Source of the DNA: Amphiplicatus sp.
GTDB lineage: Bacteria > Pseudomonadota > Alphaproteobacteria > Caulobacterales > Parvularculaceae
Length of the DNA stretch: 64,000 nucleotides
Assembly (NCBI GenBank): GCA_040216495.1
Contig: JAVJPA010000175.1
Span: 7,333-71,332 of the forward strand
Direction: 5' to 3'
The position numbers and the translations under genes were made by a program. Shown piece after piece: positions 3 to 12,484 of this stretch (its first letter is position 1; each line of letters opens with the position of its first letter). The notes beneath the pieces were generated by a model, which saw only the letters and a program-made list of their open reading frames with translations, ran no database searches and was not told the origin of the DNA.

Positions 3-1061
3 CTTTCCGGCGAAGTGATCGCGTTCGAGCCGAGCCGGCGAGAGTCGTCGACCCTTCAGAGAAACATCGCCGTCAACAAGCTCGCCAATGTAGCAGCGTT
101 TCAGCTCGCTGTCGGCGAAACCGACGGAAAAGGCACGCTGCACATCGCTGAAGACCGATACGACGGACACAACGCCCTTAACGGCCTTTCGTTCCAATCC
201 AAGCCCCCGAACCTCCGTTACACGACCGACCGCACAAACTTTCACTGGACCTCGTTCAACGGACAACGCGCGATAATCGATATCGGCGAAACCGACCAAT
301 TGGAGTTGCTGATCTACAGCGACTCGCCGTTCGAGTTCGACTTGCTCGGCGTTAGCGTTGACGCTGGCGAAGCGCGCCTCTCGCCATGGGCTGTCGATTC
401 GACCGGAGAAACGCCTGCAAGGACGCCGGCAGGGCTCGATTTTAGCGCATCGAACGCATTGATGACGACTTATGGCGGACTGAGTTTGCAGGAAGCCGGC
501 GGCGGCTTGCGCGTCATCGCGCCCGAACGATCAGGCGTCGCTTTCCGTTGGCGCATCGCGCCCAAGGCGCCGGTCAGGATCCTTGTAGACGGCAGGCTGC
601 CGTCCGACGCGCCCATCGAAAAACAGTCCGTCGAAATCGTCTCGCTCGACAGCTTCCTCGCCGGTCGGCCGCTCAAGTCGGTCGATGTGATCAAGCTCGA
701 CATAGAGGGTCACGAACTGCCGGCGCTCCTCGGCGCAAAAGGACTGATCGACAAATACAAGCCGCTGCTGATGATCGAGGTTGTGAACGATCTCGTCGCC
801 GGCAAAGGCGGCGCGCTTGAAGAGCTGTCGACTTTTCTGTCGAGCCGCGGCTACGCCTGCTTCGACGTCGTCAAAGGCAAGCCGCGCCCCGTCGACATCG
901 CTGGCGAGCACGGCTCGAACGTCATCGCCGCGCCGGAGCGTTTTCTTGACGCTGTGCTCACACTTGGCGGCCTTACGCGCGCAGACATGGCGACTGATAA
1001 GGCCGCCGGTTCTACGGCGCCGCAATCCAATAAGTCGAATCAGGTTCGCAAGAGCGCCTGA
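3..1061 (+). CDS. FkbM-family SAM-dependent methyltransferase, 5'-truncated by the window edge, with a ~140-aa insertion
   Basis: Motifs IAFEP..N...N..V....AVG and V.IVSLD....VDVIKLDIEGHE..L.GA; the frame is open from base 3. Confidence 0.85.
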   Translation, partial: LSGEVIAFEPSRRESSTLQRNIAVNKLANVAAFQLAVGETDGKGTLHIAEDRYDGHNALNGLSFQSKPPNLRYTTDRTNFHWTSFNGQRAIIDIGETDQLELLIYSDSPFEFDLLGVSVDAGEARLSPWAVDSTGETPARTPAGLDFSASNALMTTYGGLSLQEAGGGLRVIAPERSGVAFRWRIAPKAPVRILVDGRLPSDAPIEKQSVEIVSLDSFLAGRPLKSVDVIKLDIEGHELPALLGAKGLIDKYKPLLMIEVVNDLVAGKGGALEELSTFLSSRGYACFDVVKGKPRPVDIAGEHGSNVIAAPERFLDAVLTLGGLTRADMATDKAAGSTAPQSNKSNQVRKSA

Positions 1062-1253
1062 CCAGGGCGAATCAGCTCCATTCGACCGGCCGCAGCGCGG
1101 GAAATCCCCCCATTCCGGGGCTTGCCTAAAGACCTTTCTCGTTCCACCCGTTTATGGTTACAGAAGAGCCCGAACGCGCCGGGTCGTACCGGCCGCCTAG
1201 GGCGAAATCCGATCAAGCGGACTCCGGCTGGTCGACGATTTCGTCCTAAAACC

Positions 1254-1259
1254 TATAAT
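1254..1259 (+). promoter_or_regulatory. Possible sigma70 -10 hexamer upstream of the asnB-asnB-GT-GT operon
   Basis: Perfect TATAAT in a high-GC intergenic region about 60 nt upstream of the ATG at 1319; no convincing -35. Confidence 0.35.
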
Positions 1260-1318
1260 TGAGCAAGCGCCGCGCGCCGACGCGCGGAACTTGCTCCAGC
1301 AGCAAAGAGAGCGGCTTC

Positions 1319-3316
1319 ATGTGCGGCATTGTCGGGGCGTATCACCCAACTCGCGACGGCGGCGCGGTCTCGCTCGATATTCTGGCGCGGATGCGCGACG
1401 CCATGGCCCATCGCGGCCCTGACGGAGTCGGCGAATGGCGCTCGGAGAACGGGCGCTGCTCCTTCGGCCACCGACGGCTCTCGATTATCGACCTGTCGAC
1501 CGACGCCAACCAGCCGATGCTGAGCGCCGACGGCAAGATCGCCGTCGTCTTCAACGGCGAGATCTACAATCACGCCGACATCAGAAAAGAACTCGAAGCG
1601 CTCGGCAAATATCAATTCCGCACCGACCATTCGGACACGGAAGTGCTGCTCTACGCCTACGCAGAATGGGGCAAGGCGTTCGTGCACAAGATGTACGGCA
1701 TGTTCGCCATCGCCATCTACGACGCGCGCGACGCCGGCAACCCCGTCATGCACTTCATCCGCGACCGGATCGGCGTCAAGCCGCTGTATTTCACGCGCAC
1801 CCGGAAAGGCGAGTGGCTGTTCGCTTCCGAGATCAAGGCGATCCTCGAACATCCCGACGTTCCGCGCGAGATGGACCCGCTCGCCTTCAATCACTATCTG
1901 TCTTTCATCGTCGCGCCGGCGCCGATGACCATGTTCAAGGGGATTTTCAAGCTCCCCGCCGGCTACTGGGCGACGATTCATCCGAACGGACGCGCGGGCG
2001 CCGAACAATACTGGAACTGCGCGCCCGACGCCGCCGATCTCTATACGGAGAAAGAACTTCCGTTCGACGACGCCGTCGAGGAGCTGACGCGGCTTTTAAA
2101 GCTCGCCGTGAAGCGCCGCATGGTCTCCGACGTGCCGTTCGGCGCGTTGCTATCCGGCGGCGTCGATTCGAGCATTAACGTCGCGCTGATGGCCGAGCTG
2201 ATGGACCGGCCGGTGACGACCTTCACGGTCGGCTATGAAAGCTACGGCGAATTCAACGAATACGACTACGCCAAGCGCGTCGTCGACCGCTACAAGACCG
2301 ACCATCACGAGACGCGCATCGATTCGCGCGAGGCGCTGAACTTCCTGCCGAAGCTCGTTCAGTATCAGGACGAGCCGATCGCCGACAATGTCTGCATCCC
2401 GCTGTATTTCCTAGCCCGCCTTGTAAAACAGGCCGGCACGACGGTCGTGCAGGTCGGCGAAGGCGCCGACGAGAACTTCCTCGGCTACTGGTGGTGCGAC
2501 CATTACCGGAACAAGGCCGAGACGATCTACGATCCGATGCGCAAGGGCGCGCGCAATTCGCATTTCAACGCGCTGCTCGCCCGCCGCGACGGAACGACCG
2601 AGGATCAGGAGATCGCCGAACGCGCCCGGCGCGGCAAGGAGCTCTTCTGGGGCGGCGCGGCCTGCTGGTGGGGCGGCATGCGCGAGATGCTCACTCCCGA
2701 CCTCAAGGCGTTCGACTTCCGCGTCGACTGCCCGATAGAGGGCCTGATGCCGGAGTCGCACCAGTCGACCGACAGCCACGCCATTGTCGCTGAATATCTG
2801 GGACCGCTCGCCGGCAAGCTGAACGACCCGGAAGTGCTGCAGAAAATTCCGTATATGGAATTGAAACTGCGCCTGCCTGAACACCTGCTGATGCGCGTCG
2901 ACAAGATGACCATGGCGCATTCGGTCGAGGCGCGCGTGCCGTTTCTCGACCACGATGTCGTGGAGTTCGCCCGGCGCTGCCCTGCGGACTACAAACTGAA
3001 AGACGGCGTCGGCAAGAAGATCCTCAAGAAGGCCGCCGAACCCTATGTGGACGAGGATATGCTGTACCGGCGCAAACAGGGCTTCGGCGCGCCGATCGAC
3101 CGCTGGTTCCAGGAGCGCGAGTTCGGCCCCAAGACCCTGTCGCTTTTCAACCGGTCGGAGATCAAGAAGGCCGGCTATTTCGACAACCGCTATGTCGAGG
3201 ATCTCCTGAAAGCGCAAATCTCCGGCAAGTCGAATTACGGCTTCCACCTTTGGACCGTGCTCAATGCAGTGCTGTGGCATGAGCACTGGATCGGCGGGGG
3301 ACTCGCCGATTTCTAG
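1319..3316 (+). CDS. asnB: Asparagine synthase (glutamine-hydrolysing)-like amidotransferase 1
   Basis: N-terminal MCGI (Ntn Cys2), HRGPD, GHRRLSIIDL, FNGEIYN, DRIGVKPLY, LSGGVDSS, GEGADE, RVDKMTMAHSVEARVPFLD; start moved to the ATG at 1319. Confidence 0.93.
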   Translation: MCGIVGAYHPTRDGGAVSLDILARMRDAMAHRGPDGVGEWRSENGRCSFGHRRLSIIDLSTDANQPMLSADGKIAVVFNGEIYNHADIRKELEALGKYQFRTDHSDTEVLLYAYAEWGKAFVHKMYGMFAIAIYDARDAGNPVMHFIRDRIGVKPLYFTRTRKGEWLFASEIKAILEHPDVPREMDPLAFNHYLSFIVAPAPMTMFKGIFKLPAGYWATIHPNGRAGAEQYWNCAPDAADLYTEKELPFDDAVEELTRLLKLAVKRRMVSDVPFGALLSGGVDSSINVALMAELMDRPVTTFTVGYESYGEFNEYDYAKRVVDRYKTDHHETRIDSREALNFLPKLVQYQDEPIADNVCIPLYFLARLVKQAGTTVVQVGEGADENFLGYWWCDHYRNKAETIYDPMRKGARNSHFNALLARRDGTTEDQEIAERARRGKELFWGGAACWWGGMREMLTPDLKAFDFRVDCPIEGLMPESHQSTDSHAIVAEYLGPLAGKLNDPEVLQKIPYMELKLRLPEHLLMRVDKMTMAHSVEARVPFLDHDVVEFARRCPADYKLKDGVGKKILKKAAEPYVDEDMLYRRKQGFGAPIDRWFQEREFGPKTLSLFNRSEIKKAGYFDNRYVEDLLKAQISGKSNYGFHLWTVLNAVLWHEHWIGGGLADF

Positions 3317-3331
3317 CGCGCGGACAATCCG

Positions 3332-5284
3332 ATGTGCGGCGTAGTCGCGATCTTCAAGCGGCGCGGGGGAAAGCCCCTTCCCTCGCTTGAGGCCGTCGAC
3401 GCAATGACGACGGCGCTCGCCCACCGCGGGCCTGACGCGGCGGCGCGCGGCTATTACGGCGAGGGGCGCATCGCTTTCGGCCACCGGCGCCTTTCCATCG
3501 TCAATCTCGGCGAAGACGCCGACCAGCCGATGAGCGATGCGGCGGGCCGCGTCACGCTCGTCTTCAACGGCGAGATTTACAATCACCGCGCTCTGCGCCG
3601 CGAGCTCGAGGCGGAAGGACGCATCTTCCGCACCCGGAACTCCGACACGGAAGTCATTGTCGAGGGCTATCTCGCCTGGGGCTGGGAAAAGCTCCTGAAC
3701 CGGCTGTACGGCATGTTCGCCATCGTCCTGTGGGACGACCGCGAACGGCGTCTCTACGCCGTGCGCGACCGGCTCGGGATCAAGCCGCTTTACTACGCCG
3801 AGATAGACGGACAGCTTGTTTTCGCCTCCGAGATCAAGGCGATCGCAAAGCATCCGGGCTTTTCCGCGCGCATGAACGATGCGGCGTTCTTCGACATTCT
3901 GAACGTGCTGGCGACGCCGGCGCCGCAAACGCTGTTCGACGGCGTCTTCAAGCTCGGCCTCGGCGAAACGCTCGTCGCCGGCGAGGACGGCGACATCGTC
4001 AAGCGCCGCTTCTGGTCGCTTCCCGCCGCGCCCGGAGCGGCGCCGAAAAGCCGCGCCGAAGCGGTCGAGCGCATCCGGGAGCTGGCGCAGGGCGCGGTGA
4101 AGGCGCGCCTTGTCGAGGAAGTGGAGGCAGGCGTTTTTCTTTCGGGCGGCGTCGATTCGAGCTTCGTGCTCGGCGCGGCGGCGAACGCGGGCGCCCGGCT
4201 CAAAGCGTTCACCGCCGGCTATGTGGGCGATCCGCTCAACGAGGCCGAACCCGCCGCCGAGATCGCAAAGCATTTCGGCTGCGAGCACCACGTCATCGAG
4301 GTCGAAGAGACGAAGGCGATGGCGGCGACCCTGCGGCTGATGGCCGACATGGACGAGCCGATCGCCGACTGGGCGTGCATTCCGTTGCAGTTCCTCAGCG
4401 CCGCGATGCGCGAGATGGGGATCAAGGTCGGCCTTGTCGGCGAAGGCGCCGACGAATTGTTCTGCGGCTATGACGCCTGGCGCGATTTCATCCATGAAGA
4501 CGGGCGCTGGCGGGCGCTCGCGAAGGGCGGCGACGGCGCCGGTTTTCTCGCCGATCTCGTCGCCAGAATGGCGCCCGCCTCGCGCTTCGGCCTCGCCGGC
4601 GCCGCCGACATGGCGGGGCAAGTCGCCCGCGGGCGCGGGCGCTTCCGTTCCGGCGCGGAATCGATGCGGCCTATTCAAGCGGCGCGGCTATTGAAGCAGG
4701 ACTGGCGCGCGCGCGCGCCGGTGCGCGATCCTGCGTCAAAGGAGCTTTTCGAACCGGATCTTGCGCTGCGCCTCGCCGCTGCTTCCGGCGCGTGGCCTGA
4801 CAGCGCCGCGACGCCGGCGGAGATATTCCGCAACCTGAGACGGCGCGATCTCGGCTTCCGCCTGCCGGAGCTTCTTCTCATGCGCGTCGACAAGGTGACG
4901 ATGGGCTCGTCCATCGAGGCGCGCGTTCCGTTTCTCGATCACTATCTCGTCGAGTATGTAATGAGCTTGCCCGAAGACATCGTGCTCGAAGGCGGCGGCT
5001 CGAAACCGCTCCTGAAAGAGGCGGTGTCCGCCATCCTTCCGCCCTCGGTGCTGCAAAGAAAGAAGATCGGTCTCGGCGCGCCGATGGCGAAATGGCTGCG
5101 CGGCGATTTCGGGAATGAAGTGCGCGCGCTGATCGACGACGAACTCGCCGACAAGGAAACGCCGTTCGACGCGGCGCGCGTCGCGGCGCTGTACGACCGC
5201 CACCGCGCGGGCGAGCGCGACTATTCCTCCTATATCTGGCCGGTGGTGAACATTGCGCTGTGGCGCAGGAAGTGGCTCGCGTGA
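3332..5284 (+). CDS. asnB: Asparagine synthase (glutamine-hydrolysing)-like amidotransferase 2
   Basis: MCGV, HRGPD, GHRRLSIV, FNGEIYN, DRLGIKPLYY, LSGGVDSS, GEGADELFCGY, RVDKVTMGSSIEARVPFLD. Confidence 0.93.
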   Translation: MCGVVAIFKRRGGKPLPSLEAVDAMTTALAHRGPDAAARGYYGEGRIAFGHRRLSIVNLGEDADQPMSDAAGRVTLVFNGEIYNHRALRRELEAEGRIFRTRNSDTEVIVEGYLAWGWEKLLNRLYGMFAIVLWDDRERRLYAVRDRLGIKPLYYAEIDGQLVFASEIKAIAKHPGFSARMNDAAFFDILNVLATPAPQTLFDGVFKLGLGETLVAGEDGDIVKRRFWSLPAAPGAAPKSRAEAVERIRELAQGAVKARLVEEVEAGVFLSGGVDSSFVLGAAANAGARLKAFTAGYVGDPLNEAEPAAEIAKHFGCEHHVIEVEETKAMAATLRLMADMDEPIADWACIPLQFLSAAMREMGIKVGLVGEGADELFCGYDAWRDFIHEDGRWRALAKGGDGAGFLADLVARMAPASRFGLAGAADMAGQVARGRGRFRSGAESMRPIQAARLLKQDWRARAPVRDPASKELFEPDLALRLAAASGAWPDSAATPAEIFRNLRRRDLGFRLPELLLMRVDKVTMGSSIEARVPFLDHYLVEYVMSLPEDIVLEGGGSKPLLKEAVSAILPPSVLQRKKIGLGAPMAKWLRGDFGNEVRALIDDELADKETPFDAARVAALYDRHRAGERDYSSYIWPVVNIALWRRKWLA

Positions 5285-6876
5285 GCGGGAAGAAACTTGA
5301 ACTCGTGCTCGCCCTCGACGGGCGCAGCATTCCGCCCGAGGGTTGGACGCGGGCGCTGTTTCAGGACGCGCTGAAAGAGCTGAAAGCATTTCGCGGGCTA
5401 GCGGGTTGGCGCGCCGTGCGTCTTGTCGTCGACAATCCAAAAGCTGTGCCGCAGCCGGCCAAGACGGCGCTGGCGCTTCTCCTTCTCTCGCCTTCGAGCG
5501 CCGAAATCGTTTCCGCCAATGGCGAAATCCGACGTCGCATAACTTTCGCTGACATTTTCAGCGAGGCTGTCGACGGCGCGCGCTCCAGGGATGCGCACCT
5601 GAAGGCGATGAAGGAGCTTTTCGCCTGGCTCGACGCCTCGCCGGTCCGGCAGGAGAGCTATGCGCCCGCCGCGGGCGCGCCGATGGCGCTGCGTACAGGC
5701 CTCTGGTTCGGCGCCAAGGTCGGCGGCGCGTTTTCTCATGCGGCCGGCATTATCAATGCGATCCACGATGTTTTCGGCGCGGTCGATCTTCTCGCGACGG
5801 ACAGCGTGCCTTGTCTCAGGCCGGAAATCGTCTCCAAGCGCATCGATCTTGCGCAGGTAAAAGGCTGGAACACTGGCGTCGGGGTTCATTTCGCCGCCAA
5901 TGACGGACTTCTGGCCGAGGCTGAACGCCTTTCCGCGTCGCATGCGCCCGCCTTCATTTATCAGCGCGGCGGACTCGGCGATCTCAGCGGGCTCAGGCTT
6001 GCGCGCCAGTATCGCCGGCCTTTCGTACTTGAGTATAACGGGCCGGAAGTCTGGGTCGCCGACAATTGGGGCGACGGCATTCCTTACAAGGAAGAATTCC
6101 AGCGCGTCGAGACCGAACTGCTGCGCCGCGCAGATATCGTTCTCGCGGTGAGCGCGCCGCTGGTCGAGGACGCGGTCAACCGCGGGGCCGACGCGAGCCG
6201 GGTTCTACTTTCGCCCAACGCCGTCGATCCCGAGCGGTTCAATCCTGATATAGACGGCGCGACGGCGCAGGCTAAATACGGGTTCGGCGCGCGCCGCGCC
6301 GCCCTCCTTCTCTCCAGTTTCGGGCCGTGGCACGGCGTTGAGAAAGCGGTCGAGGCTTACGCGGCGCTGCTGAAACGGCGGCCGGAACTCGCCGCCGAAA
6401 CGACGCTCGTCCTCGCAGGCCACGGGCAAGGCCACGCCGCTGCGCAAAAGCAGGCGCAGGCTGCCGGGCTCAGGGCGGGCGAAACCGTCATCTTCACCTC
6501 CGTCATCCCCTCGGAAGAAGCGCCGGCGCTGATGGCGGCGTCGGAAATCCTGCTTTCTCCGCAAACGGAGAACCCGGACGGCAGCGTCTTCTTCGGCTCG
6601 CCGACCAAGATATTCGAGTATATGGCGATGGCCCGTCCGATCATCGCCAGCCGTCTCGCCCAGATCGGCGAAGTGCTGGAGCACGAAAGGACGGCGCTGC
6701 TGGTTCCGCCCGGCGACGCGCAAGCGCTCAGCGCCGCGCTTGAGCGCGCCTTCACGCAGCCTGAAAGCGTCGCCGCTTTCGGCCCCGCGGCGCGCGCCGA
6801 GGCGATCCGCGCTCATAGCTGGACGGCGCGCATCGAAGAATTGCGCGCGGGGCTTGCGCGCCTCGGGGCGCTGTAG
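5281..6876 (+). CDS. GT4 (GT-B) glycosyltransferase with N-terminal extension
   Basis: FGSPTKIFEYMAMARPIIASRLAQIGEVL, NAVDPERF, WHGVEK; GTG start overlaps the asnB stop (GTGA). Confidence 0.88.
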   Translation: MSGKKLELVLALDGRSIPPEGWTRALFQDALKELKAFRGLAGWRAVRLVVDNPKAVPQPAKTALALLLLSPSSAEIVSANGEIRRRITFADIFSEAVDGARSRDAHLKAMKELFAWLDASPVRQESYAPAAGAPMALRTGLWFGAKVGGAFSHAAGIINAIHDVFGAVDLLATDSVPCLRPEIVSKRIDLAQVKGWNTGVGVHFAANDGLLAEAERLSASHAPAFIYQRGGLGDLSGLRLARQYRRPFVLEYNGPEVWVADNWGDGIPYKEEFQRVETELLRRADIVLAVSAPLVEDAVNRGADASRVLLSPNAVDPERFNPDIDGATAQAKYGFGARRAALLLSSFGPWHGVEKAVEAYAALLKRRPELAAETTLVLAGHGQGHAAAQKQAQAAGLRAGETVIFTSVIPSEEAPALMAASEILLSPQTENPDGSVFFGSPTKIFEYMAMARPIIASRLAQIGEVLEHERTALLVPPGDAQALSAALERAFTQPESVAAFGPAARAEAIRAHSWTARIEELRAGLARLGAL

Positions 6877-8043
6877 ATGGCGAAGGGGTCGATCCTCATC
6901 GTCACCCGGCATTATCCGCCGGCGATCTCAGGCGGCGCGCGCCGTCCTTCCCTTCTCGCCGCCGGTCTGCGCGAACGCGGATGGACAGTGACCGTCGCCA
7001 GCCCGCAGGCGCCCGAAGGCGAGATAGGCTGGATCAAGACCCCTCACCCCGCCGGCGCGCGCGGCGAAGCGGCCGCAGCAGCAGGACCCGCTGCGCCGTC
7101 GCTGTTTGAAAAGATCAAATCCATCGCCCGCCGCTGGCTCTACTGGCCCGACGCCGACATGCGCTGGGCGCTCGCCGCCGCAGAGGCCGTGAAACGCGCA
7201 GGCGCAGCGCCTGACTGGATCGTGACGACGAGCCCGCCCGAGTCCGCGCACCTCGCCGGCCGCCTTATCCGGAAACAGACCGGCGCGCGCTGGCTCGCGG
7301 AAATGCGCGATAGCTGGATCGACGATCCGCTCCGGGAGGAATTGCGCGATTCAGCCTTGCGCCGGACGATAGAACGCCGCATGGCGCGCGCGCTTTTATC
7401 GAAAGCCGATCATATCGTCGCTGTCTCCGACGCCATCGCAGCGGAGGTTGAAGCCTTACGTCTTCGTCCCGCGCCGCCCGTCGCGACGATCGGCCATTTC
7501 GCCAGAGACTCCGCTGACGGGGAGCGATATGTTTTCGCGGGGCCCGGCCCGCATTTCGTCCACACCGGCCAGTTCTCGCTTTCACACGCCGAGCGCCGCC
7601 TCGACTTGCTGCTCGAAGGGTTCGCGCCTGTGGCTCGCGCCCTGCCGGAAGCAAGACTGCATCTGATCGGCCGCCTGACGCCGGAAGAACAGGCGCGGGC
7701 GAGCTCTTCGCCGCTCGCCGCGCAGATTGTCCGTCACGGCAATCTCCCCTATGCGCAAACGCTCGCCATGCAACAATCCGCAGACGGACTGATCCTGTTC
7801 CAGCAGGGAACGGCGGCGCTGCCGGGCAAGCTCAGCGAGTATCTGTTGATGACGGCTCCGATCCTTGTCGTCGGCGACGGCCCGTGGCGGGCGCGCCTTA
7901 CGGATATCTCTCACTGGCCGTTGGAGCGCGCGCAAGAAGCGCTGGCCGCACCGCGCCGCGCGCCGACGGATCATATGACTGCGGCGCTTGACCGCTACGA
8001 GGCGATTTTCGTCTCCGCTCTCCAAAAACCTAATGAGCGCTAG
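6877..8043 (+). CDS. GT4-like glycosyltransferase
   Basis: HYPPAISGGARR, YWPDADMRW, TTSPPESAHL, EMRDSW, LPGKLSEYL; starts immediately after the previous stop. Confidence 0.85.
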   Translation: MAKGSILIVTRHYPPAISGGARRPSLLAAGLRERGWTVTVASPQAPEGEIGWIKTPHPAGARGEAAAAAGPAAPSLFEKIKSIARRWLYWPDADMRWALAAAEAVKRAGAAPDWIVTTSPPESAHLAGRLIRKQTGARWLAEMRDSWIDDPLREELRDSALRRTIERRMARALLSKADHIVAVSDAIAAEVEALRLRPAPPVATIGHFARDSADGERYVFAGPGPHFVHTGQFSLSHAERRLDLLLEGFAPVARALPEARLHLIGRLTPEEQARASSSPLAAQIVRHGNLPYAQTLAMQQSADGLILFQQGTAALPGKLSEYLLMTAPILVVGDGPWRARLTDISHWPLERAQEALAAPRRAPTDHMTAALDRYEAIFVSALQKPNER

Positions 8044-9827
8044 TTGAGCATATCTTCGGGTGACGGCGACCCGGGCACATCGACGAAAGGCACGTCATAT
8101 TCTTTCAGCTTCATGACGAAGGCTTTGGTTTCCGGCGTCACGCGGCCGCCAGCTACGCTGAAAGTGCCGCGCAGCATCAGCGTGCGGAGCGCGTCGCCGT
8201 CTGGCGCAATCCCGTTGCGGGCCAAGCGCTCTCCCCACATCTGCGCGTAATTCTCAAGCCCGAATACCGGATACTCGCAGTGAACGGTGCCCCCGGATTT
8301 GTCATCCACGCAATTTCTGAGAAGCCCTCGCGTCAGTCCGTGTGCGACTTTTTTTTCATTTATCTTCGCAATGAATTGCCGGCCCGTCATGTCAACGGGA
8401 ACGAAATCAGCGGGTGAACCGTTGAGATAATCGAAAATATCCATCGGCTGCGTTGAGTCTTTCTTGGCCAGATACCCGCCGAACGTCGCGTCCATGAGGT
8501 AAAACTCGCCGTTCATGGGAACGATGGTCGTAACATGAGTGAGGTCGTCTTTCAGAACGCCGAAATTCCAGGTGAACGCGTCGATACCCTGATCGGCGAG
8601 CAGCCGTCGGAAGAACACCGACGTGCCGCCACAAAAGCCGCCGCCCTGATTCAAGTCATAATACCTGAAATAAATTTTATGCAGCTCCGCGCTGGATGGC
8701 CTGAATTCCGCATTGACGCTTCGCGTAAGGGCAAAATCGATATTCTTTGACGCCCACTGAAGAAGCTGCAACGCTCTCTCGAACTTCGTTGCGTTGACAT
8801 CTGCTTGCGGCAGCAGCTCTTCGAACTCTTCGCGCGTACGACACCGCCAATTGTCACTGGCGCATGCCGACACCGATTCAAGTTTTACAGAAAACCGGTC
8901 GTCTGAGCCGGCGAAGAACAGCGCCTCGTCGCCTGGCTCCAGCACAACGTGCCGACGCTCCATCGGAAGATAGGCGAGCCCTTGCTTGTTTCGGCGCGAT
9001 AGCGACACCCCTTGCGGAGGCATTCGGTCAAAGATGATCGCGACGCGCCTTGCCTCCTTCGCCGGCGCAAGCCCGAGCCTTACGCCGAACTCGCCTTCGA
9101 AACCCTCGCGGCGCGAGACGTCTATGCGGCCGCTTTTCTCCGCCACCGAGATATCGGCGCCGTTGTACGCCGTCGCGCTTAACGCTGGCGCGGACTTTGT
9201 GAGACGAATCGGGCGAACGACTGAGCCGTCCGCTTCGCAGATCAGCGCTATACCATCGCAAGGCTCAACGCCGACGATCCGAATCGACGCCGCATCATAC
9301 CCTTGCGAATAGATCAGCGCGGAGGACATTTCCGATAAATTGAGGATTACATGCTGACGCGCTGTAGACGAACTGTAGCGCCTATCCCCGTCGCCGTCTT
9401 CGCGAATATTGAACGGCGCGCTTGCGTCGAGATCGAAAAACACGGCGACCCTGCCTGCGCGTTTGCTTTTAGGGGGGCTGGCTGGCGAAAGTTCGACCCC
9501 TGCTTCCTCCGTTCCCTTTGGCGCGAAGGCGATCACGCCTTCCGCTGCCTCGGAAAGAGCCGCTCTGAAAGGACGGAGCGAAACGCCTGCGCGAACGACG
9601 GCGTCGCTGACAGCCTCGTCCCTGGCGGGGATCGGCGCTTTGGTGTCGCTCAAGACGAGGACCGTCGTTGCCAAGGCGGCTACAGCGAGGATTGCCCCGA
9701 GCATGAAAAGATGCGGTGACTTCCGGTTCAAGGTCGCACTCCCGCCTGCAGGACCGGCTTTTCGGCCTGCGGCTCCCTGCCGTATTGGCGAACGCCCGCC
9801 ATTGTCATTTGCGAGCATGGCTCGCAT
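8040..9827 (-). CDS. Membrane-anchored protein with two tandem unknown domains and a C-terminal transglutaminase/arylamine-N-acetyltransferase-like (Cys-His-Asp) domain
   Basis: Hydrophobic segment at aa 41-59; GGGFC(399)GGTSVFFRRLL..QGI, LTH(431)VTTIV, YLMD(446)ATFGG. Confidence 0.7.
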   Translation of the reverse strand: MRAMLANDNGGRSPIRQGAAGRKAGPAGGSATLNRKSPHLFMLGAILAVAALATTVLVLSDTKAPIPARDEAVSDAVVRAGVSLRPFRAALSEAAEGVIAFAPKGTEEAGVELSPASPPKSKRAGRVAVFFDLDASAPFNIREDGDGDRRYSSSTARQHVILNLSEMSSALIYSQGYDAASIRIVGVEPCDGIALICEADGSVVRPIRLTKSAPALSATAYNGADISVAEKSGRIDVSRREGFEGEFGVRLGLAPAKEARRVAIIFDRMPPQGVSLSRRNKQGLAYLPMERRHVVLEPGDEALFFAGSDDRFSVKLESVSACASDNWRCRTREEFEELLPQADVNATKFERALQLLQWASKNIDFALTRSVNAEFRPSSAELHKIYFRYYDLNQGGGFCGGTSVFFRRLLADQGIDAFTWNFGVLKDDLTHVTTIVPMNGEFYLMDATFGGYLAKKDSTQPMDIFDYLNGSPADFVPVDMTGRQFIAKINEKKVAHGLTRGLLRNCVDDKSGGTVHCEYPVFGLENYAQMWGERLARNGIAPDGDALRTLMLRGTFSVAGGRVTPETKAFVMKLKEYDVPFVDVPGSPSPEDMLN

Positions 9828-11248: not shown

Positions 11249-12484
11249 ATGAATATGTCTCCCCGCCTGTCCCTTTCCTACCTGTCGCCGCAACAGGCGC
11301 AGAAGCATGTCACGGTCAATGAAAGCCTGCGCCGGCTCGATGCGCTGACGCAGCTCGCGGTCGTCTCGCGCAGCCAGACCGCAGAACCCGCCGCGCCGCA
11401 GGAAGGCGACGCCTATATCCTCCCGGCGGCGGCCAGCGGCGGCGCCTGGAGCGCGATGGCGACGGCGTCGATCGCCGCGTTCCAGGACGGCGCCTGGCGC
11501 GAGATCGCGCCCGGCGCGGGTTGGCGCGCCTGGGCGGCCGACGAGGAAACGCTGCTTGTGTTCGACGGCGCGGCATGGACGGCGCTGAGCGCCGGCGGCG
11601 GCGAGCCGTCCATGCTCGGCGTCAACGCCAGCCCGGATGCGACCAACCGTCTTTCGGTGAAGTCCAATGTCGAACTTCTCTCCCATGACGACGTGACGCC
11701 GGGGACGGGCGACGCGCGCAAGATCATCAACCGCGCCGGCTCGGGCGGCGCCGCTTCCGTGGTCTTCCAGACAGGGTTCAGCGGCCAGGCGGAGTTCGGG
11801 CTTATCGGGGACGACCGTTTCCGGCTCAAGGTCAGCGACGACGGCGAGGCCTTTCTCGACGCGCTCATCATCGATACGGCGAGCGGCGATGTGGGCGTCG
11901 GCGCCGCGCCGAAAGCCAAGCTGTTCGTCAAGGGCGACAATCTCAGCGATCCGGGCGTCGGCGACCTGCATATCGAAAAGGACGGTTATTTCGCGCTGTT
12001 TTTCCTCGATACGTATGCGGACGGCGCGGCTTCCTTCTCCATCCAGCGCCGGGCGCGCGGCACGCTGGCCGCGCCGGCGGCGGTGCAGGTAGGCGATAGC
12101 TGCGGCGGCTTTTCCTTCCGCGGCTACAATGCGGCGGGCGGGTTCACGCAGGCGGCGATCATCTACGCGCCCGTCGACGGCGCCGTCTCGGGCGCCGCCG
12201 TGCCGACGGCGCTCGCATTCTCCACCGGTTCGGCCTCAGCGGCCGAGCGGATGCGCATAACGTCAGCCGGAGATGTCGGCGTCGGCGTTTCGGCGCCGAC
12301 CACGAAGCTGCATGTGGACGGGCCGGTGCGCTGCAAATCCTACACGGTCGCGGGCGCGCCTTCGGCGGCTTCCGCCGGCGCGGGCTCGATGATCTTCGTG
12401 AGCAACGAAAGCGGCGGGGCGACGCTGGCTTTCAGCGACGGCGCCAACTGGCGGCGCGTCGCCGATCGGGCGGTGATTTCATGA
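11249..12484 (+). CDS. DUF2793 protein, GTA/phage tail-fibre-like
   Basis: SPRLSLSYLSPQQAQKHVTVNESLRRLDAL, GDAYIL, AFQDGAWREIAPGAGWRAW, FQTGFSGQAEFGLIGDDRFRLKVSDDG, two GDVGVG..P..KL.V.G repeats. Confidence 0.85.
   Translation: MNMSPRLSLSYLSPQQAQKHVTVNESLRRLDALTQLAVVSRSQTAEPAAPQEGDAYILPAAASGGAWSAMATASIAAFQDGAWREIAPGAGWRAWAADEETLLVFDGAAWTALSAGGGEPSMLGVNASPDATNRLSVKSNVELLSHDDVTPGTGDARKIINRAGSGGAASVVFQTGFSGQAEFGLIGDDRFRLKVSDDGEAFLDALIIDTASGDVGVGAAPKAKLFVKGDNLSDPGVGDLHIEKDGYFALFFLDTYADGAASFSIQRRARGTLAAPAAVQVGDSCGGFSFRGYNAAGGFTQAAIIYAPVDGAVSGAAVPTALAFSTGSASAAERMRITSAGDVGVGVSAPTTKLHVDGPVRCKSYTVAGAPSAASAGAGSMIFVSNESGGATLAFSDGANWRRVADRAVIS

Follow-up and report, generated by a model that had tools for sequence, protein, structure and literature searches.

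WbmE of Bordetella bronchiseptica is a periplasmic deamidase of the transglutaminase superfamily that turns the uronamides of exported O-antigen into uronates; its catalytic triad is C165/H201/D216, and genes for AsnB-type amidotransferases are found in its locus (PMC2615507). A locus comparable to that of WbmE was analysed here in a 64,000-nucleotide (nt) stretch of Amphiplicatus sp. DNA (assembly GCA_040216495.1, contig JAVJPA010000175.1, positions 7,333 to 71,332 of the forward strand), called the window below. It contains the gene of an FkbM-family methyltransferase interrupted by an all-beta insert, and the gene of a 595-amino-acid (aa) protein, P0002, made of two predicted beta-sandwich units and a Cys-His-Asp domain. 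A preliminary description of the window had proposed, from an alignment made by eye, that insert and repeats are the same domain, circularly permuted in the methyltransferase. On the sequence comparisons presented here, taken as a whole, the best explanation is quite probably that both proteins share one uncurated domain, which is permuted in the FkbM insert.

Like WbmE, P0002 is presumably an exported enzyme of the Cys-His-Asp type, and its gene belongs to a locus for an ABC-transporter-dependent O-polysaccharide with AsnB-type amidotransferases. The spacing of the triad is 36/15 in WbmE and 32/15 in P0002 (C399/H431/D446), and it is by this spacing and by locus content alone that the two are likened. 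They differ in that a Cys at residue 165 leaves WbmE no room for the two 112-aa units and the helical linker of about 75 aa that are present in P0002, and in that no domain-sharing FkbM partner has been reported for WbmE. The C-terminal carbohydrate-binding domain of Wzt (PF14524) is a beta-sandwich acting in this kind of pathway, where it reads the finished glycan. It showed no sequence relation to the unit: hidden Markov models (HMMs) gave no match, and hhalign against the C-terminus of the contig's own Wzt gave E 0.21.

Members of the FkbM family (PF05050 / TIGR01444; structure 2py6) share with the window protein a Rossmann-type S-adenosylmethionine (SAM) methyltransferase core, which here lies on either side of the insert. 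In ordinary members, with a length of about 250 aa, a short loop occupies the site where the present clade carries a predicted beta-sandwich of 143 aa. Finally, natural circular permutations are known in beta-sandwich lectins and carbohydrate-binding modules (CBMs), where domain order is swapped and the fold kept. The permutation-by-duplication model expects a tandem duplicate as intermediate, a form that the partner family described here has. The present case differs from the known ones in that the permuted copy is inserted inside the fold of another enzyme, with the tandem form encoded in the same gene cluster.

An all-beta insert splits the FkbM methyltransferase

The features of the FkbM gene are as follows (positions in the window).

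3..1061, plus strand: gene of the FkbM-family methyltransferase; the 5' end is cut by the window, and the full gene, read from contig C175, begins 393 nt further upstream and encodes 484 aa (P0003)
192..620, plus strand (aa 196-338 of the full protein): all-beta insert of about 143 aa, read as a permuted copy of a unit of about 112 aa
195..362, plus strand: insert part 1, corresponding to the C-terminal half of the unit (LRL..D...W ... E.LIYSD.PF.F.L); unit HMM positions 51-106, independent E-value (i-E) 1.3e-11
363..464, plus strand: internal linker of the insert, corresponding to the inter-repeat junction, with a conserved PW (W261 = unit W4); placed by hhalign residue mapping
465..611, plus strand: insert part 2, corresponding to the N-terminal half of the unit (G..FRW.L.P...R..V.G); unit HMM positions 5-54

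Membership in the FkbM family is clear, both curated cut-offs being exceeded in profile searches: PF05050 matched with 55.7 bits (cut-off 22.7, E 8e-15) and TIGR01444 with 97.4 bits (cut-off 37.7, E 1e-27), each in two stretches flanking the insert. The match is divided because the insert interrupts the family domain, which accounts for the separate two-stretch profile matches in the annotation of these FkbM proteins. A GxGxG-type motif, DIGANAGFY, is present in the sequence, and the protein is a putative SAM-dependent methyltransferase that would act on a sugar or hydroxyl acceptor.

In an AlphaFold2 model computed from the family alignment (mean predicted local distance difference test, pLDDT, 82.7), the insert splits the Rossmann fold and is all-beta, with about 10-11 strands and pLDDT of 71-93 by blocks. 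A Foldseek search with the whole model returned methyltransferase cores only, with the FkbM structure 2py6 among the top matches, and no match that informed on the insert. The insert is missing from 79 of 80 related FkbM genomic loci.

The insert belongs to a family of tandem units

An alignment of the insert alone was searched with HMMER against 1.84 billion representative proteins, and gave 33 proteins at E<1e-3 (best E 3e-16). Nine of these were FkbM proteins of 468-603 aa matched at about residues 200-340, and one was an FkbM fragment. Three more (P0023, P0033 and P0039) were by eye unrelated repeat proteins and were left out. The remaining 20 were non-FkbM proteins, most of them 490-854 aa long and with two to five matched stretches each. 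Their prevailing architecture is a signal peptide, tandem units of about 112 aa ending in CxxC, and then a Cys-His-Asp domain with the motifs GG..C.GFA.FF, THVTT and FY.FDPTF. This C-terminal domain is homologous to that of P0002, which matched 15 of the 20 in a phmmer search (E 1e-24 to 9e-9). The matches thus define a presumably exported family with one to five tandem units ahead of a papain-like Cys-His-Asp domain, of which P0002 is a divergent two-unit member.

With one unit as the query, jackhmmer gathered 45 copies from the 20 proteins, nearly all spanning model positions ~3-112. The resulting canonical unit HMM (112 aa, 45 copies) was built without any FkbM sequence. Its consensus reads W...G..FRR.LDP...YRL.V.G....G..LRL..D...P.W..AP.G......E.LIY.D.PF.Y.L..L...C..C.

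Five shorter proteins (P0027, P0030, P0034, P0035 and P0037, 158-324 aa) have one or two units and no Cys-His-Asp domain, followed in some by a C-terminal hydrophobic helix; some of the five may be fragments of short contigs. With units also occurring apart from the Cys-His-Asp domain, the unit is used in at least three architectures, and the module may be a mobile one, as the preliminary description had called it.

That description had also foreseen a new domain family, and indeed the unit found no match in Pfam-A, NCBIfam or PDB sequences, in searches that were sequence-to-profile and so leave room for a remote link to a CBM clan. Literature searches found no description of insert or unit, and all named members of the unit family are called "hypothetical protein". 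The unit is rare: among 401 genomes sampled from the phylum of the window, it was present in one, the window's own. Precedents exist for shared accessory beta-sandwiches, for domain insertions and for circular permutations taken singly; the novelty is the family itself and their combination.

The insert is a circularly permuted unit

When the canonical unit HMM was applied to the FkbM inserts, all 13 were matched in two pieces in swapped order, model positions 51-107 coming first and 4-58 second. The window protein scored 39.3 bits (E 3.4e-14 with Z=1, a single comparison). Part 2 was weak in the window protein taken alone (i-E 9e-4), and reached 6e-11 to 1e-5 in its relatives. A profile of 11 FkbM inserts was then compared by hhalign with a profile of two canonical units in tandem. 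This gave a single alignment running across the unit junction (probability 99.5%, E 4.6e-23), in agreement with the permuted repeat unit of the preliminary description. Eleven conserved unit/insert residue pairs were found in the alignment: R60/R204, D64/D208, W70/W214, E88/E233, Y92/Y237, D94/D239, F97/F242, W4/W261, G31/G310, R35/R314 and G50/G329. In the linker, P260 and W261 are nearly invariant among the 11 inserts.

As read from these matches, the insert opens with the "LRL" strand of the unit, continues to the end of the C-terminal half, crosses a junction-like linker and closes with the N-terminal half, which is the order of an out-of-register window of a tandem array. The permutation cut lies between the "YRL.V.G" and "LRL" strands, and the old termini are joined by the junction-equivalent linker. 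In the unit this place is a hairpin loop, so that the ends of the insert would be adjacent, as insertion into a host loop requires. Proteins with one unit only also exist in the W...CxxC register, either alone (P0034, P0035) or with a Cys-His-Asp domain (in the loci L004, 422 aa; L009; and L011, 413 aa). This register is therefore that of the autonomous domain, and the insert a true permutation.

The terminal CxxC of the unit is absent from the insert, where the Cys pair is replaced by G254/R257, and P0002 has C-x6-C instead. The Cys pair is probably tied to an extracytoplasmic location, and not to the fold.

The repeats of the 595-residue protein

The features of the P0002 gene are as follows.

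8040..9827, minus strand: gene of the 595-aa protein P0002, predicted to be membrane-anchored or exported, with two putative beta-sandwich units and a Cys-His-Asp domain
9657..9707, minus strand (aa 41-57): single hydrophobic helix preceded by a basic stretch, a putative signal anchor according to model helix and sequence
9255..9575, minus strand (aa 85-191): unit 1, ending C190-x6-C197; subfamily unit HMM i-E 1e-31, and full-length hhalign match to the canonical unit
8859..9215, minus strand (aa 205-323): unit 2, ending C322-x6-C329; subfamily unit HMM i-E 2.9e-28
9015..9416, minus strand (aa 138-271): region aligned colinearly by hhalign with positions 5-137 of the FkbM insert; it extends from the second half of unit 1 across the linker into the first half of unit 2
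8043..8825, minus strand: papain-like, transglutaminase/NAT-like Cys-His-Asp domain, with C399 (8631-8633), H431 (8535-8537) and D446 (8490-8492), codons checked

The colinear alignment of the preliminary description was reproduced by BLASTP, Smith-Waterman and hhalign, with all five of its quoted segments in register, and the boundaries given by the subfamily HMM agree with its statement that the aligned stretch joins the halves of two repeats. In P0002 itself the internal repeat was detected with a Smith-Waterman score of 56 (shuffles 30.5 +/- 5.5, p 0.002). Between the two window proteins, BLASTP of the insert against aa 136-270 gave E 0.72, Smith-Waterman a score of 49 (shuffles 31.6 +/- 5.3, p ~0.01), and hhalign with shallow profiles of two or three close relatives E 0.29. 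As proof these pairwise comparisons were dropped, their register being right and their significance lacking.

Deeper profiles gave the alignment its significance, so that the proof is transitive and profile-based rather than pairwise. Word-indexed searches, one for the insert and one for the repeat region, each yielded just one or two close relatives, which is not enough depth for profiles. A full-length word-indexed search with P0002 gave three intermediates (P0041-43) that are 33-37% identical over 83-84% of its length; in two of them, P0042 and P0043 (33% identical to P0002), the canonical unit HMM matched a whole unit at both repeat positions. A subfamily profile built from 15 units of P0002's own subfamily matched both repeats of P0002 as full-length units, and aligned with the canonical unit profile from end to end (hhalign probability 95.4%, E 1.8e-8). 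Against the FkbM insert profile, the single-unit subfamily profile aligned in permuted order (E 4.7e-5 and 4.4e-3), and the tandem form in one piece (E 2.4e-5). The score of this last alignment, 37.1, was reached by none of 150 column shuffles (11.3 +/- 2.2, maximum 18.8), and the reversed insert gave 12.7. The profile comparison with shuffled controls that the preliminary description had suggested thus came out in favour of its proposal, and the hhalign results link insert, canonical unit and P0002 subfamily units as one domain.

Iterative and structural comparisons went the same way. A jackhmmer search from aa 75-329 of P0002 retrieved canonical members and then the window FkbM protein (10.3 bits), above every reversed decoy. 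On the hhalign alignment, strand and non-strand positions of the two AlphaFold2 models agreed at 68%, versus 39-65% at shifted registers, and ten strands paired one to one. Foldseek matched the two-repeat region to bicupins and to Vip3 CBM-like domains with probability up to 1.0 over about 285 columns. As is predicted for P0002, Vip3 domains IV-V and bicupins consist of two consecutive jelly-roll-like beta-sandwiches. Sequence identity is ~10%, the TM-score is at most 0.16, and a metal-binding cupin motif is not evident; the resemblance is one of fold level only.

Two other alignments were set aside. A second repeat-2 alignment by hhalign, with a shift of about 18 residues in the first half, was judged a mis-registration; the subfamily HMM resolves the register. 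Wzt_C and the extension at the C-terminus of the adjacent Methyltransf_23 protein were rejected as relatives of the unit; this extension, like the Wzt C-terminus, served as an unrelated beta-rich control from the same contig (E 0.075).

Several points weigh against a shared domain. The pairwise similarity of the two window proteins is insignificant, and the canonical unit HMM gives 0.7 bits on P0002, no detection, so that the link goes through profile-profile scores and the three intermediates. The model of P0002, with its two all-beta N-terminal blocks, is of moderate confidence (mean pLDDT 71.6), and in the Foldseek comparison with known folds TM-scores stayed low, at 0.16 or less when normalised on the whole query.

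Some of these points would also be expected if the insert were kin to the canonical units while the N-terminal region of P0002 were a different beta-rich domain, its resemblance to the insert being coincidental; direct hhalign with shallow profiles (E 0.02-0.29) is indeed close to the unrelated controls. Yet the end-to-end match of subfamily and canonical profiles, the full-length canonical matches at both repeat positions of P0042 and P0043, the separation of the subfamily-insert score from its shuffles, and the identical architecture with homologous Cys-His-Asp domains all speak against coincidence, which we consider highly improbable.

Most of P0002 is predicted from its sequence to lie outside the cytoplasm, and its relatives carry signal peptides or lipobox-like sequences, plus Cys pairs. 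The start codon of the gene is uncertain (window 9705-9827). The alternative M42, as in the 554-aa gene call P0005, would turn the hydrophobic segment from an internal anchor into a signal sequence at the N-terminus.

In the C-terminal domain, C399, H431 and D446 are invariant and in triad order across 18 aligned family members. The domain matches PF04473 (DUF553) marginally (22.4 bits versus a cut-off of 20.5, E 8.7e-5), weakly resembles the arylamine N-acetyltransferase (NAT) profile, and has merely a faint precomputed match to PF01841 (Transglut_core), on P0006. One- and two-unit paralogues occur side by side, a second, shorter gene (422-423 aa, one unit) following the two-unit gene at L004 7461-8729 and L009 3954-5225. 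In L004 the two-unit gene looks split solely through a run of N in the scaffold, and the same locus encodes an 800-aa protein that by eye only is MBOAT/AlgI-like with a C-terminal extension.

Linkage of the two genes

For every insert-bearing FkbM gene with enough flanking sequence, a gene combining units with a Cys-His-Asp domain was found within 8 kb (seven of seven loci: the window, L001, L002, L004/L005, L008, L009 and L011). The distance between the two genes is about 7 kb in the window, L001 and L002 and about 2 kb in L011; in L008, L009 and L004/L005 they are direct neighbours. In comparison, 79 insert-less FkbM loci from reference genomes had neither the insert (0/79) nor a unit plus Cys-His-Asp gene (0/79). 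The two genes are thus inherited together, in polysaccharide loci of the ABC-transporter-dependent (Wzm/Wzt) type in which AsnB-type amidotransferases are encoded as well. The seven loci are not independent events, because one cassette is common to all. In the window, the genes that separate the pair are:

1319..8043, plus strand: two AsnB-type glutamine amidotransferases (1319-3316, 3332-5284) and two GT4 glycosyltransferases (5260-6876, 6877-8043)

Together with the two module genes they form the conserved cassette, which is syntenic in L001, L002, L007, L008 and L009. The tandem AsnB-type paralogues (DNA segments ~67% identical) are paired in these same five loci and single in L011; their pairing suggests two distinct amidation steps.

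Upstream on the contig (window coordinates ~-6980 to -540) lie a heparinase II/III-like gene, Wzm, Wzt and a Methyltransf_23 gene. Wzt, about 2-4 kb upstream of FkbM, has a Wzt_C match of 30.0 bits, just below the Pfam cut-off of 30.4 bits. The Methyltransf_23 protein (542 aa, divergently oriented) has a beta-rich C-terminal extension of ~140 aa. The order heparinase-like/Wzm/Wzt/Methyltransf_23 recurs in L007 and L011, with UDP-GlcNAc 2-epimerase and UDP-ManNAc-type dehydrogenase genes nearby. The pathway is that of an ABC-transporter-dependent polysaccharide, and the glycan is probably amidated and contains uronic acid.

A gene of a DUF2793 protein (window 11249-12484) lies beside the polysaccharide genes, as in L001 (2602-4688) and L002 (3921-5947). 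In both of these loci an HpiC1-like gene is next to it, and the window aligns to L002 at ~96% there (~12.6-13.3 kb).

Comparison of the window with L002, a metagenome contig, revealed 98-100% identity over more than 13 kb, apart from two replaced patches. The first covers the FkbM N-terminal core and the insert (window ~1-600 plus 1 kb upstream), with 66-82% identity and an unalignable part at 348-603. The second (window 8200-8800, 56-76% identity) covers the catalytic core of the Cys-His-Asp domain, the lowest-GC stretch (0.55). To judge from the sequences, allelic cassette exchange seems to have affected precisely the two unit-sharing genes.

Base composition had been cited in the preliminary description, which took both genes as visibly richer in A/T than their neighbours. 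The difference is real (GC content 0.608 for FkbM and 0.587 for the P0002 gene, of which the Cys-His-Asp part has 0.552, versus 0.62-0.69 for neighbours and 0.634 for the genome), but it is modest, and GC at third codon positions of FkbM (0.744) is no lower than in the adjacent glycosyltransferases.

The insert is nearer to canonical units than to the repeats of its neighbour (39 versus about 10 bits). The insertion is therefore old, and no recent copying from the adjacent gene took place. Going further, one may suppose that this FkbM clade had the insert from its ancestor, or received it from a third source that was not sampled, and that the neighbourhood reflects a shared locus history instead of functional coupling or donation from the tandem repeats. 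The direction of transfer is not legible in these data, and the seven-of-seven count is partly phylogenetic inertia. On the other side, the cassette spans at least a Pseudomonadales metagenome-assembled genome (L011) and the lineage of the window, with FkbM identities of only 37-42%; the pairing outlived the changes of gene order from adjacency to a 7-kb separation; and the insert is colinear with "half unit - junction - half unit", as capture from a tandem array predicts. We regard an origin apart from the tandem repeats as unlikely.

A possible role in glycan recognition

In the function we propose, the unit would be a putative polymer-binding, CBM-like beta-sandwich that holds the same polysaccharide for both enzymes. 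The FkbM enzyme is placed in the cytoplasm because it needs SAM and has no export signal, and P0002 and its relatives outside it because of their signal anchor, signal peptides or lipobox and their Cys pairs. The FkbM O-methyltransferase would act on the polymer in the cytoplasm, possibly as a non-reducing-end modifier read by the C-terminal domain of Wzt. A Wzt with a Wzt_C-like domain goes with a terminally modified glycan in characterised systems; its presence here suggests terminal modification, which the FkbM enzyme may add. After export, the extracytoplasmic Cys-His-Asp enzyme would act on the same polymer, most likely as an amide-bond enzyme like WbmE. Acting on polymer and not on nucleotide sugars would give each enzyme a reason to carry a polymer-binding beta-sandwich. 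The extracytoplasmic copies would have kept the terminal Cys pair that the cytoplasmic insert lost.

The strength of these proposals is not uniform. Putative glycan binding by the unit, and with it the term "recognition module" of the preliminary description, is evenly balanced between true and false; the models are all-beta, and the comparison with CBM folds gave the high-probability, low-TM matches described above. WbmE-like amide chemistry, argued by analogy, falls a little short of even. The full scheme, in which one glycan-reading beta-sandwich captured as an out-of-register window of a tandem array serves a cytoplasmic, possibly chain-terminating FkbM enzyme and a periplasmic WbmE-like enzyme, is accordingly worded as tentative: it may hold, though we lean against it in its entirety.

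Three further observations count on the negative side. The FkbM inserts do not retain the unit's "AP.G" motif. The inserts of the window and L002 share 49% identity and the partner repeats 98%, so the two copies do not co-vary, which is awkward for strict recognition of one epitope. Canonical unit plus Cys-His-Asp genes are also found without FkbM or obvious glycan genes nearby. The last two would fit a domain that is shared and permuted but does not bind glycan, serving instead in protein-protein contacts (oligomerisation, or docking to Wzm/Wzt or the assembly machinery) or as a spacer or lid. In the class I methyltransferase fold, an insert at such a position could indeed shape a substrate lid. 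However, the copies are predicted to lie on opposite sides of the inner membrane, the SAM-dependent enzyme in the cytoplasm and the signal-anchored protein or its lipoprotein relatives beyond it, and two such copies cannot dock to the same protein surface. Moreover, a tandem array of two to five beta-sandwiches ahead of a catalytic domain is how polymer-binding modules are usually arranged, and among the best high-probability Foldseek matches are Vip3 CBM-like domains. A role other than glycan binding is therefore given a minor share of our belief, somewhat larger than that of an origin apart from the tandem repeats.

The reading of one domain shared by both proteins and permuted in the insert defines a domain family that was absent from Pfam-A, NCBIfam and PDB, and provides an example of natural circular permutation in which the tandem-repeat form and the permuted, inserted form occur within one gene cluster. 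If glycan reading by this domain is true, it would give a handle on how enzymes that tailor O-antigen at the polymer level find their substrate. If P0002 acts like WbmE, post-export editing of O-antigen charge would occur far outside Bordetella, and would be more widespread than its single characterised case.

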